Source: Sphyrna mokarran
Lineage: Eukaryota
Assembly: GCA_024679065.1 (NCBI GenBank)
Contig: JAGIQG010000002.1
Span: 78,926,001-78,990,000 of the forward strand
Reading direction: 5' to 3'
Length of the DNA stretch: 64,000 nucleotides
Shown piece after piece: positions 1,944 to 14,884 of the stretch. The position numbers and the translations under genes are program-made. Under the pieces are notes generated by a model. It was given only the letters and a program-made list of their open reading frames with translations, ran no database searches and was not told where the DNA came from. Each line of letters starts with the position of its first letter. Positions within the stretch are counted from its first letter, which is position 1.

Positions 1944-2004
1944 TGTACAAGGGGTCTGCATCCAAGGCTCTCCATCGATTTGCATCGGCAGGAACTTGCT
2001 GGTT
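1944..2004 (-). CDS. DGKB: DGKB penultimate coding exon (61 bp; not in the ORF track)
   Basis: Translates (R)[20 protein letters not shown], with the DGK PMQxDGEPW motif. Acceptor ctttccag| and donor |gtaagt. AG plus A makes AGA (Arg), in frame with the previous exon. Confidence 0.97.
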
Positions 2005-2463
2005 CTGGAAAGGAATAAAGAAATGGAGACATTGCAATAACTGAGAGATTATAAGAACTCACGGCAAAAAATGGACCACAAGTGTTTTACTGTAATTGAT
2101 GGAGCGTTTACAGTTTCAAGGCCACAAAATTTTGTGACTTGTGCGCCAGACATTGAAGTGACAGTGCTCAATTTGACACTTTCAGCAGATTTGAATGAAT
2201 TGTGTTTGCACCAGTAGCTAGCTTAATGGAAAACATGTGCAAAACCTAAAAAGGAGCTTAAATGTAAAGAGATGAATGTACTTAAAGTATTTGAACAATT
2301 ATTGATCTTGCCTTTATAAAGCTTCAAAGCTTGTTTGAATAGTTTGCCAGGGCTGGGGGAAGGATTGGAAAATAACGACAAGCAAAAATGAAGTGAAACA
2401 AAGCCTGAAGTATAGTTGAATTCCAGTTTGATGGCTGGCAGGATGAATGCACGGAGGGTTATC

Positions 2464-2484
2464 ATATATATATATATATATATA
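2464..2484. repeat. (AT)n microsatellite
   Basis: About 10 perfect AT units. Confidence 0.95.
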
Positions 2485-2494
2485 GAACTTCATA

Positions 2495-2849
2495 GTGCCC
2501 TGTGGTGACACAGTGGTTAGCACTGCTTCCTCTCAGCTTCAGGGACCTGGGTTTGATTCCCAGCTTGGGTCACTATCTGTGTGGAGTTTGCACGTTCTCC
2601 CTGTGTCTGCATGGGTTTCCTCTGCATGTCCCAATTTCGTCCCACAGTCTCAAAATAAGGGTTAGCTATTCCAAAGATGTGTGGGTTAGATTGATTGGTT
2701 ATGCTAAATTGCCTTAGTATCCTGGGATGCATGGGTTCACGGGATTACAGAGTAAATATTGTGGAGTTATGGGGATTGGGGTTAGGTGAGATTGTTGTGG
2801 GTGCAGATTCAATGGGCCAAATGTCTTCCTTCTGTACTTTTATGTTTCA
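2495..2849 (+). mobile_element. HE1-type V-SINE with CR1/HER1-like tail
   Basis: tRNA-like head (cagtggttagcact, ggtttgattcc) and V-domain gtggagtttgcacgttctccctgtgtctgcatgggtttcct. Confidence 0.9.
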
Positions 2850-2995
2850 CAGAGGACAGACTGTAACCAGGCTCAACAATATACGCAGTAATGGGTACCA
2901 CCTACACTGTTTGAACCTGTGAAATGTCTTGTCTCCTCCCAACCTTTCTGAAAGTAAAGTAATTAAAACGTTGGTCTTTGCTAACAATTACTACA

Positions 2996-4003
2996 GGGGC
3001 AATTCTCCAGAAAAAATTCTAAGTATCAAATTTGCAGAAAAACTGGAGTAATTCATGCTGGTTTTTTCAGTGAGAGTTTCAAAATAAACCTCCCACACTT
3101 GAAATCTCCCATACACTGACGTGAATCTCATTGAAAATCAGTCAGCTATTCCCGCTGGAGAAGGCAGCAGCATAGTGCTGAGTAGGCCACTGTGCATGTG
3201 CCAATCGTCAGTGCTGTGATCAGCACATAAGCAGTATCCCTGCACTGCTGGCTCCCCAGTTGCTGGTCAGCTCGGTCACTGGCCAGCATTGTGACCCCTG
3301 CATCACTGGCTGTGCGTCCCCCATCATCTGTGCTGACCCCCTGGATGTGTTTGGGCAGGCCCATCCCCACCATACCCCACTCCGACCCCCTCCCCAGCAG
3401 GCTGGCCCTTCCCCACCCTGATGCCCAGCCTAGATTGCTGGCTTCTCTCCTTATGTCACTCAGCCCAAGTACAGGAGCCCCCACAGCCGCCAATCTCCTC
3501 CCTAGAGGCCCTGCCTCATCCATTAGGCCCCACCCACTTGGCACTGCCCGATACCTGATGGCAGTGTCAAGGTGTCCTCCAGCATTGGCACTTTTCTCCT
3601 TGGGCACTGCTAGGGGCTCCAGACTGGCAATGCTCTTCTGATGCCTGACATTCTGGGGGGCCTCAACTGCCCTGCCTCACTCCAGCGGGCGAGGCTGCCA
3701 GCTTTTCACAAGTGGAGAGCTATAGTGCACCCCGCTGGAGCGAACTATTCCTGGCTGGGGTGGTGAGATGCCAGCAGGTCCAGATGATTTCAGTCCCAGG
3801 CCTGCTAATAAGATGGAAATTATATTATAATGAGACTTAACATAATTTATGAAGCTCTGTGCCGATTTCTGGGGTAGAGCTGACAGCACCCTGGAAATCC
3901 GGCTTGTGAAGGACATGGCACCCAGTGGGGGGGGCCCATGAAATAGCCTCTGCTCGAGTCTCCCAGCCTGCCATTCTACAAAAGCACAGTGAGATAGGAG
4001 AAT
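2996..4003. mobile_element. Non-autonomous DNA transposon relic (Harbinger-like)
   Basis: GC-rich block starting ggggcaattctcc and ending ggagaat (partial TIR). Confidence 0.5.
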
Positions 4004-4024
4004 AAATTGATATACATCGCTATT

Positions 4025-4445
4025 GATGTTCAAGAGAATGATCCCAAGAAGAAAAAGTTTGACATTTGAGGAATGCCTGAGGATTGTCTATACTTACTTA
4101 AGTTTAGAGTTTAGAGGGACGGGAGTTGGTCTCATTGAATCTTACACAATATTGAAAGTGCTGGATAAAGTGGATATGGAAAATATTTTTCTATTAATTG
4201 GCGAGATTAGGATCCGAGGGTGCAGCCTCAGAGTAAAGAGTTGAGAAGTTATTTTTTTCAGCTGGAGACTGGGGAATTTATGGAATTTGTTGCCATAGAA
4301 GACTGTGGAAGCCAAGTCACAGAGGTATATAGGTTCTTGATTTGTAAGAGGATTAAAGGTTATTGGAAAAAGGCAGGAAAATTGGGTTGAGATATTTATC
4401 AACCGTGACTGAATGGCCAAATTCTGCTCCAGGCTCTTCTGTATC
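4025..4445 (+). mobile_element. CR1 LINE 3' fragment, decayed
   Basis: FKRMIP..LTFEECLR..LIESYTILKVLDKVD aligns with the CR1 ORF2 C-terminus at 13080-13450. Confidence 0.85.
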
Positions 4446-4749
4446 TCCTGGAGTATTGATAGTGTTGAAAATATACCAGGTGTCATTATATCTGTTTTGG
4501 TGTTTTCTCACAAACTTATCTTCCTCTCTAGATCATGAAGCATCTTCATTCCTCTATCTGATGTTATTTAAATTTTTGATTCTTCTGGATTTTCCCAGAA
4601 TTAATCATCCTAACAGGTCTGTGAATAACCCAGAAGATTATTGGGGTATATGTTTCTCCCATGTCATTTTGGCCAGAGCAGCAACAAATGAATTCTAAAA
4701 GTCTATGTTAAAAACTAACAAGATACAATTCCATTCAATAGCAAGGAAG

Positions 4750-5052
4750 AGGCAGTGGCTAGTAGTATTGTCGCTGGGCTAGTAATCCAGAGACCCAGGT
4801 CAATGTTATGAGGCCCCATCAAGGCAGATGGTGAAATTTGAGCTCAGTAAAACTTTGGAATTAAAAACCTGATGATCATTATCATAAAAATCTATCTGTT
4901 TCATTAATGTCCTTGAGAGAAGGAAATCTGTTGTCCTTACCTGGTCTGGCCTACATGTGACTCCAGATCCACAGCAGTGTGGTTGACTCTTAAAATTCCA
5001 ATAAATGCTGGCCTAGCCAGTGACATCCACATCTCATGAACAAATTAAAAAA
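4750..5052 (+). mobile_element. tRNA-headed SINE, family 2
   Basis: Shares ccttacctggtctggcctacatgtgactccag and the aataaatgctggcc tail with 19887-20256. Confidence 0.8.
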
Positions 5053-5323
5053 TGTATATGTTTAGTTTGTGCTAATGTGAACTACAAAGTTAATTTGAAT
5101 GAATAGTTTGTTTCAACATGAAATGTTGCTGCTTCATTCAAATCCAACTTGGTTTGAATTAGTCAGACTAGTTGAGTTTCCTAAGCTGCTTAGCTTCATC
5201 TTTCTGGAAAAGGGAATTAATTTGTCAAAGATGTCTAACCACTCAAGTTTTTGGCCTCAATGGAATTCATTTACAGGTAATAACAAAAGCAGAGGTGGGT
5301 CAATTCCTCTTGAAACTAATTGC

Positions 5324-5799
5324 TTATCCTCAACAACTCTATGTATTCCTTAAACTACACATTCAAATCAAAAGAGCTCTGAATCCTTGGCCTGGCTAAA
5401 ATTTAATTTGAAAAAATAAGCAGAAAATTTGTAATGTGAAGTGAGACAGAGCTTTGTTCCTGTCCTGTGGTGTTCAACCAAAGCTATGATCGTAGTTATC
5501 AGCTTTCTTCCCAAATCAATCAATCTGTTCTGTAGTCGATTGATCCTTCAGGCTCATTTCCTATTAACTTGAGGATTTCTCTAGGACTTGCACATCACTT
5601 ACTGCCACACAGTACTTAGTCACTTACTGCCACACAGGATGAGCTTCAAGCATTTATTAGTGATATCTTGCACTCTCTAAAATCCAGCAATGAAGTAACA
5701 TTCTAGCTGCAATAATTGTACCTTCAATATGAAATTAGATGTTGTTGCTATCATCTTGACTAGTCTATTCATATAGGCATGGCACATTATATTTTTAAA
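5324..5799 (+). repeat. Long inverted repeat, left arm
   Basis: Reverse complement of 6738-7189, with about 12 substitutions, a 1-nt indel and a 25-nt insertion by manual alignment. Confidence 0.97.
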
Positions 5800-6083
5800 G
5801 TTAAATTTAATAGTCACAAGCAGGCTTACATTAACGTTGCAATGAAGTTACTATGAAAATCCCTGAGTAGCCACACTCCGGCGCCTATTCAGGTACACTG
5901 GGAGAGAATTTAACATGGCCAATGCACCTAATTAGCATGTCTTTTGGACTGTGGGAGGAAACTGGCGTACCAGGAGGAAATCTATGCTTACATGGGGAGA
6001 ACGTGCAGAAGGTGATCCAAGCCGGAAATTGAACCTCGGCCCCTGGAACTGTGGGACAACAATGCTAGCAACTGTGTACCCGT
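5800..6083 (-). mobile_element. V-SINE with alternative tail (actaataaa..ctttaaa type)
   Basis: Reverse complement of the head, V-domain and tail seen at 33950-34258. Confidence 0.88.
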
Positions 6084-6737
6084 CTATTGTAGTGGTAATT
6101 GGGAATTACAATTGAGGATACTGGTGACCTTGTTTATCATTTATTAACTTGTACTTATGTTTTAAGTTGTCCACAGATGATAATACTTTACCCTGCTAAC
6201 CTGGAAAAAATTAAGACAATTATTGATTGATATACAGCTGTACCAAGGTCTATGGATGTGATAATAGAGCTTGTTGATCTCCACTGCAACTAAGAAATAA
6301 TATATTTAAGAAGCTTTAAAATAAGTTTATCTTATGGAGATAAAAATAGGCCCAAATTATTTCTTGAAAAATACTTATTAATATACATTTCAAAAATGTG
6401 CAAAGTGTGCTGTATTAAAAAGGGACTCCAAACATTTCAATAAAATGTACACAACAAAGTCTGTCTGGCCAAGGAAATTTCCTTGCTCCATTCCAAATGG
6501 ACAATTTGGCCCAAGTACTGTGCAAGAATTTAATTTTAATGATTCTGTAATAGATCTGTGATCTAAATGCAGCTCTGGTACAAATGAGCACAATAAGTTC
6601 AACTCAATATATCTAGAAGATATAATAGTAGCCAGAGATAAATGGGCACAGGCTATCACTCTTGACTGAGCATTTCCTCTGCCTGGTTGTAGATCTTCTT
6701 TCCTGGTCCACAGAATAGCTAAATCAGTCCTTGTTAG

Positions 6738-7189
6738 TTTAAAAATATAATGTGCCATACCTATATGAATAGACTAGTCAAGATGATAGCAACAACATCT
6801 AATTTCATATTGAAGGTACAATTATTGCAGGTAGAATGTTACTTCATTGCTGGATTTTAGAAGGTGCAAGATATCACTAATAAATGCTTGAAGCTCATCC
6901 TGTGTGGCAGTAAGTGATGTGCAAGTCCTAGAGAAATCCTCAAGTTAATAGGAAATGAGCCTGAAGAATCGATCAACTACAGAACAGATTGATTGATTTG
7001 GGAAGAAAGCCGATAACTACGATCATAGCTTTGGTTGAACACCACAGGACACGAACAAAGCACTGTCTCACTTCACATTACAAATTTTCTGCTTATTTTT
7101 TCAAATTAAATTTTAGCCAGGCCAAGGATTCGGAAGCTCTTTTGATTTGAATGTGTAGATTAAGGAATACATAGAGTTGTTGAGGATAA
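6738..7189 (-). repeat. Long inverted repeat, right arm
   Basis: Reverse complement of 5324-5799. Confidence 0.97.
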
Positions 7190-7351
7190 CGTCAAGTTGC
7201 ATAGTTTTCACTGACAGCATCCAAACAATATGTTTATTTAGAAACAAAAATGATGGAATTTGCATTGTGAGCATTTAAACCATAATACTGCATGAATAAA
7301 TCAAACCAAATATCATGATATACAATATCCTCTGGTTACTCTGAAACATAC

Positions 7352-7472
7352 CTGATAGTTAGCAAGGAGCATTGCGCTAGCCTTTTCCCTGCACTTTTTA
7401 GCCCTGTGTAGATCTGTCCCATCTCCATGGCCCCTTCCAGGCCAATCACTTCAAATAGCTGATCACTTGCAT
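7352..7472 (-). CDS. DGKB: DGKB internal coding exon (121 bp)
   Basis: Translates (D)[39 protein letters not shown](R). Acceptor ttcttttcag| and donor |gtatgt. The trailing G of the upstream exon plus AT makes GAT (Asp), so phases match. Confidence 0.97.
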
Positions 7473-7767
7473 CTGAAAAGAAAAAAAAACAAGAATAGAA
7501 TGAAATACCATGCTTATGAAATTCAATCTCGTCAAAATATTCTCTTGATTCCCACTCGATATCCAATCTCTTTTTCACAGCACTTTGGAAAGTCCCATTA
7601 GATCAAGTTACAATTTTAAGCTTGAATTTTTGTGCTGTAATATCTACACAGAAAATTGGCATTTCTGTTCCTGTCCACTGACCAGTGGCAGTGGTGTGTT
7701 ACAGATCACTTCGGCAGTCCAAGTTGCTGTGGCAAAATACACTTTGAAATGAATGTTGTAGTCTTGG

Positions 7768-8012
7768 TCTGGAGGGACATTTTTTTTCACACAGAAAGTG
7801 GTGAGTGTCTGGAAGAAGCTGCCAGAAGCAGCAATAGAGGTGGGTACAATTTTGTCTTTTAGAAAGCATTTAGATAGTTGATAGGTAAAATTGGTATGGA
7901 GGGATATGGGCTAAATGGAGCCAATTGAGAGTGGCTTAATGGTTAAAAAAAGGGGCAGCATGGACAAGTTAGGCTGAAAGGCCTGTTTTCATGCTGCAGC
8001 CTCTATTACCTC
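7768..8012 (+). mobile_element. CR1 LINE 3' end
   Basis: FFTQKVVSVW-like coding end, then 3'UTR ggctgaaaggcctgttt and tail. Confidence 0.8.
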
Positions 8013-8063: not shown

Positions 8064-8390
8064 TGGGTGGCACAATTGCACAGCGGTTAGCACTGTTGCT
8101 TCACAGCACCAGGGACCCACATTTGATACCCAGGTTGGGTCACCATCTGTATGGAGCTTGCACATTCTCCCTCTGGCTGCATGGGTTTCCTTCGGGTGCC
8201 CCGATTTCCTTCCACAGTCCAAAGGTGTGCAGTTTAGGCAAATTGGCCAAACTAAATTTTCCCTCAGTGTCAATGGGATTAGCTAGGGTAAATGCAGAGG
8301 GTTACGGGGATAGGGAATGGGTAGAATTGTTGTTAGTGTACACTCAATGGTTCGGATGGCCGCCTTCAGCACTGTAGGATTCTATGATTA
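8064..8390 (+). mobile_element. HE1-type V-SINE
   Basis: Head, V-domain and ggattctatgatt tail. Confidence 0.9.
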
Positions 8391-12833: not shown

Positions 12834-12993
12834 ATATTATTCATCACATTTTTCCCTCACTTCAGCTCTAAGGAAGAGTCTTACAGATTCAAAATGTTAA
12901 TAAGGAGCAGGATTTTCAAGCTGTTCTCACTGGTTTTCCATTCCTGCTGACTACGACCCCCACTGTGGGTTGTCTGGTAGTCATGATGTAGAG

Positions 12994-14884
12994 ATAGAAC
13001 ATAGAACATTACAGCACAGAACAGGCCCTTCGGCCTTCGATGTTGCGCTGACCAATATAAAAAGCAATGCCCCTCCAAACTAAACCATTCCCTTCTCTTC
13101 CATATACTTATCAACTAACCTCTTAAACGCCACCAAACTTGGCGCATCTACAACTGCTGCAGGCAGGGCATTCCACTCCCGAACCACCCTTTGGGTAAAG
13201 AACCTGCCTCTGATATCCGTCCTATAACTATCACCCCTTAATTTAAAGCTGTGTCCCCTCGTGCTAGCTTTCTCCATCCTAGGAAAAAGGCTATCACTGT
13301 CCACCCTATCTAAACCTCTAATCATCTTATATGTTTCGATAAGGTCCCCTCTTAGCCGCCTCCTTTCTAACGAAAACAACCTCAAATCCCTCAGCCTCTC
13401 TTCATAAGACCTGCCCTCCATACCAGGCAACATCCTGGTAAACCTCCTCTGTACCCTCTCCAATGCCTCCACATCTTTCTTATAATGTGGGGACCAGAAC
13501 TGCACACAATACTCCAAGTGCGGCCGCACTAGAGTTTTGTACAGTTGCAACATGACGTTGTGGCTCCGAAATTCATTCCCTCTACCAATAAAAACCAAGA
13601 TTCCATATGCCTTCCTAACAACCTTCTCGACCTGACTGCCTACTTTCAGGGATCTATGCACATACACACCAAGATCCCTCTGTTCATCTAGACTACTAAG
13701 AATCCTACCATTTGCCCTATACTCTACACATTTATTATTTCTGCCATAGTGCATTACCTCACACTTTTCCACATTAAACTCCATTTGCCACCTCTCGGCC
13801 CAGCTCTGCAACTTGTCCAAGTCTCTCTGCAAACTATAACACCCCTCTTCACTATCTACCACTCCACCGACTTTAGTGTCATCTGCAAATTTACTAATCC
13901 ATCCTTCAATACCCTCATCCAGATCATTTATAAAAATTACAAACAGCAGGGGCCCCAAAACAGACCCCTGAGGTACACCACTTGTCACCGAACTCCAAGA
14001 TGAATATCTCCCATCAACCACCACCCTCTGTCTTCTATCTGCTAGCCAATTCCTAACCCAATTAGCTAAATCACCCTCTATCCCATACATCTGCATTTTC
14101 TGCAGAAGTCTTCCATGGGCCACCTTATCAAACGCCTTACTAAAGTCCATATATACCACATCAACCGCCTTACCCCCATCCACCTCCTTAGTCACTTTTT
14201 CAAAAAACTCAATGAGGTTAGTAAGGTACGACCTACCCTTCACAAAACCATGCTGACTATCTCCAATCAATTCATTACTCTAAATAACTATAAATCCTAT
14301 CCCTAATTATTCTCTCCAACACTTTGCCCACCACAGAAGTAAGACTCACTGGCCTATAATTCCCTGGAAGGTCTCTCTTCCCCTTCTTGAACAACGGGAC
14401 CACATTCGCTATCCTCCAGTCCTCCGGAACCACACCCGTAACCAACGACGACCTGAAGATCAGAGCCAGAGGCTCTGCAATCTCCTCTCTTGCCTCCCAG
14501 AGAATCCTAGGGTAAATCCCGTCCGGCCCAGGGGACTTATCCAACTTCAAACCCTCGAGAATATCTAGCACATCCTCCCTATCTACTTCGATACTTTCCA
14601 GTTTGCTACCCTGTACCTCAGTGTTCTCCATAACTACATTTACATCACCCTGCGTGAATACCGAAGAGAAATATTTATTCAGTACCTCTCCAATCTCCTC
14701 AGGCTCCACGCACAACTTCCCACTGCTGTCTATGACTGGCCCTAATCTTGCCCTAACCAATCTTCTATTCTTAACATATCTAAAGAAAGCTTTAGGATTC
14801 TCCTAATCCTATCAGCCAAAGTCTTCTCGTGTCCTCTCTTCGCTCTCCTCAATTCACTCTTTAGCTCCCTCCTGGCTAATCTAT
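12994..14884 (-). mobile_element. Young 5'-truncated CR1 (HER1-like) LINE
   Basis: Near-intact ORF2 RT (NYRPVSLTS, QHGF, DFSKAFDKV, GVPQGSVLGP, FADD), 3'UTR and (GTTCTAT)n tail. Confidence 0.97.
13080..14884 (-). pseudogene. CR1 ORF2 reverse transcriptase, truncated, two frameshifts
   Basis: ORFs 13080-14270, 14275-14760 and 14742-15107 join through frameshifts near 14275 and 14805; the endonuclease domain is absent. Confidence 0.92.

Follow-up and report, generated by a model that had tools for sequence, protein, structure and literature searches.

Several described classes of sequence resemble the inverted repeat analysed in this study. According to the available portions of Pace 2009 (PMC2671141), 824 repair-mediated duplications (RDs) are present in the human genome; they are up to 619 bp long, their donors are at most 5 kb away, most often near 1.2 kb, and they are characterised by microhomology, a deletion or filler at the junctions, no poly-A, empty sites in relatives and neutral divergence. 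The same portions place 295 of the 824 acceptors in introns, assign 9 of 39 proximal cases to 'MH+Del', and give densities of 0.08-0.65 RDs per Mb of TE DNA in ten vertebrates, sharks not included. A related class, 'Inverted Dup', accounts for 54% of 229 sequenced inversion sites in the sections at hand of the 1000 Genomes phase 3 study (Sudmant 2015, PMC4617611). As outlined in the accessible text of Loytynoja and Goldman 2017 (PMC5453318), template switches of type 1-4-3-2 or 3-2-1-4 create an inverted repeat in one event and leave the spacer unflipped.

The inverted repeat studied here lies in a window of 64 kb, the whole stretch of shark DNA that was analysed. Its left arm (5324..5799, 476 nt) is single-copy intronic DNA and represents the ancestral donor segment, and its right arm is 452 nt long as aligned (6738..7189), of which 6738..7186 (449 nt) constitutes the inserted, lineage-specific, inverted part. 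The spacer between them (5800..6737, 938 nt) is ancestral and unchanged in orientation. Alignment of the arms yielded 439 matches and 12 substitutions over 451 columns, or 97.3% identity, which falls to 92% once gaps (a 1-nt and a 25-nt indel) are counted. The near-perfect inverted arms and 938-nt spacer of the original prediction were therefore confirmed, with the addition of two indels that it had not mentioned. The 25-nt segment (5595..5619, plus strand) is flanked by two 18-nt direct repeats, is ancestral and is missing from the right arm. The longest open frame overlapping the feature is 127 aa from stop to stop, and an Rfam search of the feature matched no family. An old SINE on the minus strand (5792..6085, ends approximate) adjoins the left arm, and its tail repeat overlaps the last ~8 nt of that arm; these nucleotides (5792-5799) match the tails of SINE copies near 34.2 and 59.6 kb. 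This tail alignment, together with the 67-81% likeness of the SINE to other copies in the window, bears out the earlier statement that the inner end of the left arm meets the tail of a decayed SINE.

Both arms are located within one intron (2005..7351, minus strand, 5,347 nt), as defined by splice signals and the exon map, because the neighbouring exons were found at 7472-7352 and 2004-1944. The first of these is a 121-nt exon (7352..7472, minus strand) encoding part of a DAGK_acc domain, with its donor GT at 7351-7350, and the second has 61 nt (1944..2004, minus strand). The donor at 7351 is 162 nt from the right arm, in agreement with the predicted distance of ~160 nt from a DGKB donor site. 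Pfam DAGK_acc was matched both by the 121-nt exon and by the exon upstream of it, and the best match of the latter was a shark diacylglycerol kinase beta (92%). This shark DGK beta protein could be mapped to six exons at the locus with 82-100% identity, compared with 59-90% at a paralogue on contig C113. The assignment of the host gene as DGKB is thus supported by the best hit. Synteny did not distinguish the diacylglycerol kinases, since a PEA3-type ETS gene is located downstream of the host gene and of the paralogue alike; PF04116, used as a synteny marker, had no match on the host contig, and comparison with the PDB for gene naming returned no match. The upstream introns of DGKB are very long, with exons at ~44.3, ~67.5 and ~177 kb in window coordinates (span 44182-177052), and the last DGKB coding exon is located ~53 kb before the start of the window.

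A genome-wide search, which the original prediction had proposed as the means of separating a local duplication from a high-copy repeat, was carried out with the right arm against its own 2.77-Gb genome. Exactly two matches were obtained, namely the two arms themselves (E 2.9e-234 for the self match and 1.5e-200 for the other arm), a count that is a lower bound but that indicates a local duplication. As a positive control, a query containing an old repeat returned 919 candidates, with matches at 71-86% identity; a similarly diverged family related to the arms would therefore probably have surfaced. Self-comparison of the 64-kb window revealed no further match to the arms either, as had been claimed from the letters alone. 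The absence of a target-site duplication (TSD) likewise held: no TSD of at least 4 nt was present within 3 nt of the outer ends, where the outer flanks differ, and comparison with the empty site revealed none around the right arm. As in the RDs of Pace 2009, the insertion is at least 50 bp long (449 nt), remains below ~620 bp, has only one other copy in the genome (by the lower-bound search), and its donor is 50 bp to 5 kb away (938 nt). To the extent that the two sources describe their cases, the locus also shares with the 'Inverted Dup' sites of Sudmant 2015 a length of <1 kb, inverted orientation, a position within 5 kb of the other copy and no link to retrotransposition, and it differs from the RDs of Pace 2009 in that the DGKB acceptor is non-repeat DNA; every RD found there, whether in primates, other mammals, chicken or zebrafish, interrupts an annotated TE. 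The word 'inverted' is absent from the available Pace 2009 text, yet one case in opposite orientation is described there; the DGKB copy is inverted.

The history of the locus was reconstructed from sequencing runs of related organisms. Matches to the locus were found in 22 DNA or unclassified sequencing runs, one containing 0.91 of the words and the others 0.04-0.17, and seven of the 22 were compared with the locus: X1, from the same species, and X2, X6, X8, X11, X13 and X20. Over 5800-7900 the comparison covered X2, X6 and X11, which represent organisms B, C and D. In all three relatives the site is empty: one contig in each runs from 6737 to 7187 with a single letter between them and at least 255 letters on either side, so that 449 nt are absent. 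In each of these relatives the arm sequence is on another contig; it differs by 21-29 substitutions and includes the 25-nt segment. In X2 and X8, one contig runs from the left flank through the left arm into the SINE tail over 5210-5805 (ends loose; 5210-5812 compared), which makes two of two relatives with cover in this left-arm test; the low-coverage runs X13 and X20 yielded no record. In addition, 6078-6737 is collinear with, and on the same strand as, 7187-7795 within one contig of X2 and one of X6. These contigs indicate that the ancestor had the left arm, the SINE and the spacer but not the right arm, which was newly inserted in inverted orientation in place of one base; judged by the same comparison, the SINE predates the duplication. 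Both an empty site in relatives (three of three) and a donor in place (two of two with cover) are features shared with the RDs of Pace 2009.

The same contigs bear on two other proposals about the history of the repeat. A later gain of the 25-nt segment in the left arm was rejected because X2, X6 and X11 all carry it, and flipping of the spacer was likewise dismissed, as far as the compared species go, because it is collinear and on the same strand in them. The counts of differences in spacer and flank were 50/660 versus 30/609 for X2 (p 0.064, or p 0.030 versus pooled flanks) and 49/660 versus 34/600 for X6 (p 0.21), and faster change in the spacer was not convincing on these counts. Most of the differences listed at 6078-6737 are T/A in the host genome and C/G in relatives, with 3 of 35 spacer differences at CpG; this AT drift is lineage-wide and not specific to the repeat.

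Several aspects of the event were shown: donor 5326-5799, acceptor 6737|7187, one base lost, no TSD, spacer unchanged, and both arms diverging. At the outer junction, the target-site bases TAA (7187..7189, plus strand) are complementary to the donor outer end 5324-5326, giving 3 nt of microhomology in the present sequence and 1 nt in the relatives. Both X2 and X8 have a C at 5325, so the ancestral microhomology was 1 nt unless a C-to-T change preceded the event. The inner junction shows no microhomology, with agreement at just 2 of the last 5 bases, and neither a poly-A nor a tail repeat at the 3' end of the copy was found at the junctions. Because the inner junction is without microhomology, priming by a hairpin fold-back at the SINE tail is unsupported. 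The prediction of a recent fold-back or template switch consequently stood in part: the empty site supports a lineage-specific local inverted duplication made by a template switch or repair copy, whereas the literal fold-back at the SINE tail was not upheld.

We consider it highly probable that the right arm arose in this lineage when intronic DNA from close by was inserted in inverted orientation, most likely through one template switch during repair or replication, and that the copy is likely functionless. The event would have begun at 6737|7187 with a stalled fork or a break. The 3' end on the exon side could then have annealed, via 1-3 nt of microhomology, to the donor outer end ~1.4 kb away, and synthesis from it would have run for ~474 nt in the direction of the break and into the SINE tail, after which the copied strand would have come off and been joined bluntly to the other end without homology. 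Such a route would correspond to one-ended SDSA-like capture, and in the four-point notation to a template switch of type 1-4-3-2. Slippage at the 18-nt repeats, either in the course of copying or later, likely caused the 25-nt loss. Against this main reading, the microhomology is weak: it measures 3 nt only if 5325 had already changed from C to T, and otherwise 1 nt, below the 2-9 nt range of Pace 2009. The locus nevertheless has, like the RDs, a 1-nt deletion (range 1-15 nt) and no tail, with microhomology of 1-3 nt at one end only. The SDSA-like repair of a double-strand break that characterises RDs would fit the product seen in DGKB, and a fork template switch yields the same structure. 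The switch-point order is like that of the four-point template switches described in the accessible text of PMC5453318, in which the events are mutation clusters of a few tens of bases, in contrast to the ~474 nt copied from 0.9-1.4 kb away in DGKB.

Divergence between the arms since copying was polarised with the relatives as outgroup. Derived states in the left arm comprise substitutions at 5380, 5501, 5537, 5541, 5674 and 5675 and a 1-nt loss. In the right arm, derived states were directly shown at 5450 and 5460, in addition to the 25-nt loss, and three more (5354, 5706 and 5778) were deduced partly from their absence among the differences listed (40 of 47); position 5545 is ambiguous in polarity. 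The result, six substitutions on the left versus up to five on the right and one ambiguous, fits about equal decay of the two sequences. CpG transitions account for four of the 12 arm differences, and none of the 12 is compensatory. The differences are spread evenly, the longest identical gap being 72 nt, a value equalled by 92% of random placements; a gene-conversion tract between the arms was considered, but none was seen and the differences are not clustered. At least nine further substitutions, among the differences listed, are common to both arms versus both X2 and X8. These shared substitutions suggest that the copy postdates most of the divergence from X2 and X8, and that it was made ~40% back along the path if there was no conversion. 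A relative with both arms was not found among those compared. In the available Sudmant 2015 text the cases are human polymorphisms, and the DGKB copy differs in being old enough for 12 substitutions. From the decay of the arms and the commonness of such pairs, we infer that the arms follow the pattern of two neutral copies.

During transcription of the gene, a stem of this kind is likely to serve as a substrate for ADAR. The long dsRNA stem that had been proposed for the pre-mRNA was recovered as a prediction, with 444 arm-arm pairs in the fold and a predicted duplex energy of -772 kcal/mol, versus -218 and -189 for neighbouring inverted SINE pairs. The stem would begin 162 nt past the donor and would loop out 1.87 of the 5.35 kb of intron, and the donor is predicted to pair locally with the exon only and with neither arm. 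On this model, a ~440-bp stem would form inside one intron, may be edited in passing, and would likely be neutral and discarded with the intron. The predicted structure is like that of IRAlus, as described in the part of PMC11263572 that was available, in placing a long intramolecular dsRNA within an intron of a pre-mRNA; unlike IRAlus, the DGKB arms are unique DNA, 97% alike and with a single partner. Two SINE copies in opposite orientation (5800-6077 and 8079-8270) flank the 121-nt exon and are 67% alike over 193 nt; they constitute a weak pairing across that exon, which could compete with, or lose to, other stems.

Four other explanations were weighed against the insertion of a repair-made copy. 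An assembly artefact, with only one arm real, would be compatible with the finding that no single listed contig or long read covers both arms, and X1 may be the sample from which the assembly came. Contigs of X1 nevertheless cross both junctions, the inner one over 5943-6789 and the outer one over 7135-7810, with 0 differences, reaching 52-55 letters into the arm, and a third X1 contig has left-arm letters plus the 25 nt. The bridging of both junctions by contigs of the same species argues against misassembly, and an artefact is also rejected because each arm carries derived changes of its own, polarised with relatives; we regard it as extremely unlikely. The original prediction had named a foldback transposon as its alternative, and a foldback or long-TIR DNA transposon spanning 5324-7189 would account for a non-coding spacer enclosed by long inverted arms that are nearly identical. 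Such an element is barely credible here, since only one arm is new: the relatives miss the right arm alone, so that arms and interior were not inserted as a unit, and the spacer consists of the old SINE and orthologous intron DNA with no long frame. A TSD at the outer ends and a dispersed family, the other two features tested, were absent as well, with only two matches in the genome.

An RNA template is another possibility, either because a free 3' end primed reverse transcription on the DGKB pre-mRNA or because SINE read-through carried its 3' flank (transduction). The strand to be extended from the microhomology is indeed complementary to the minus-strand DGKB pre-mRNA, and the start of the donor falls precisely within the 3' tail of a SINE located on that strand. 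The copy, on the other hand, is without a TSD, poly-A or tail repeat at its 3' end; the SINE was already old, being present in relatives and 67-81% alike to other copies; and an insertion 938 nt from the donor is unexpected for retrotransposition. In the portions of Pace 2009 (PMC2671141) available, 0 of 39 proximal duplications had a poly-A/T tract. Nothing in the evidence requires an RNA template, which we judge highly improbable, and break repair, a fork template switch and RNA-templated repair are not distinguishable by their product. It is also conceivable that the origin was the same but that the stem works in DGKB RNA, through heavy ADAR editing, small RNAs or altered splicing of the 121-nt exon or the 5.3-kb intron. 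The length and predicted stability of the stem, its proximity to the donor and the portion of intron that it would loop out are in favour of such a role, and splicing can be shifted by intronic inverted Alu pairs according to the consulted part of PMC11263572. The same part indicates that pairing within an intron favours ordinary linear splicing, and here the arms share one intron, the stem does not flank an exon and the donor is predicted to pair with neither arm. Furthermore, the exon region is kept in relatives without the insertion, the 12 differences without compensatory change and the 25-nt bulge show no sign of maintenance, and such pairs are common in the sampled DNA (~14 per Mb). A working stem would therefore seem very unlikely, and a repair-made, likely functionless copy is the reading retained. 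The DGKB inverted repeat shows every testable feature of the Pace 2009 and Sudmant 2015 classes, and it is ordinary.

A scan for other local two-copy pairs covered six blocks from three contigs, 1.464 Mb in total, of which 464 kb were centred on the window. The first strict filter was swamped by minisatellites and was replaced by a strict two-copy filter for pairs of at least 60 nt, which returned 68 pairs, 33 within 20 kb and 35 distant. Spacers of 50-5000 nt were found in 22 of the 33 near pairs, and merging of one nested pair left 21 events, 12 inverted and 9 direct. Excluding the DGKB locus, there were 20 pairs, or ~14 per Mb; when the block with the window is set aside, the density is 11 per Mb. 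Because sequence changes slowly in sharks, old pairs would remain visible. The density of ~14 per Mb is not comparable with those of Pace 2009, in which only TE-interrupting insertions were counted under strict filters. Five of the 20 pairs were checked genome-wide; four had exactly two matches, and one was a local pair at 98-99% with an old repeat over part of the arm. Some of these other pairs, which for 15 of the 20 were defined from the scanned blocks and for all 20 without an outgroup, may be remnants of low-copy elements. A flanking 4-5 nt repeat was present in 2 of 13 inverted hits, for which the chance rate is 19%.

Of all 22 hits, 13 were inverted (p 0.52); among the 17 hits within 1.5 kb the count was 13 (p 0.049), but it became 12 of 16 after merging of the nested pair (~p 0.08) and 11 of 15 also without the DGKB locus (~p 0.12). 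An inversion bias among local pairs was thus not established after merging and dropping of the selected DGKB locus. Enrichment of inverted pairs around DGKB was not retained either, with 7 of 11 in 36% of the low-copy DNA (p 0.06). Two inverted pairs within 220 kb have a geometry nearly that of the DGKB pair, each with two matches in the genome: C771:78785667-78787368 (452 nt, 93%, spacer 814), in the region of a PEA3-type ETS gene, and C771:79146760-79148052 (260 nt, 95%, spacer 775), upstream in the DGKB region. A young inverted pair at C771:120138045-120139593 (98-99%, arm 530 nt, spacer 124) has a partner that is interrupted by 365 nt of other DNA, and part of its arm is an old repeat. The scan also detected a self-complementary stretch at C771:50075204-50075976 (~770 nt, 87%), a palindrome without spacer, and a direct two-copy pair at C113:3634846-3638423 (462 nt, 95%, spacer 2660) in an intron of the DGK paralogue, with two matches in the genome. 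A separate young repeat occupies 12992-14884 of the window and has at least 10 copies at 93-100% within 464 kb; its copies mostly end at one shared position, as in 5'-truncated LINE copies.

These pairs raise the possibility that the DGKB locus exemplifies a dense and so far uncatalogued set of local duplications that repair has produced in shark genomes, leaning towards inversion at spacers <1.5 kb, with a stem that is possibly heavily edited or splicing-altering; we hold this broader proposal to be tentative and rather unlikely. If it is true, shark introns with thousands of unique, near-perfect, single-partner dsRNA stems would be a natural test set for ADAR editing and splicing.

Alone, the locus is of little weight, being one further repair-made local duplication in an intron. 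A limited literature search found no paper on the repair-mediated duplication class in sharks, and the value of the locus is as a clean, outgroup-resolved example from sharks, which are outside the Pace 2009 survey. If the apparent density of such pairs holds up when like is compared with like, it would be relevant to the way in which shark genomes, which evolve slowly, acquire sequence and dsRNA in introns.
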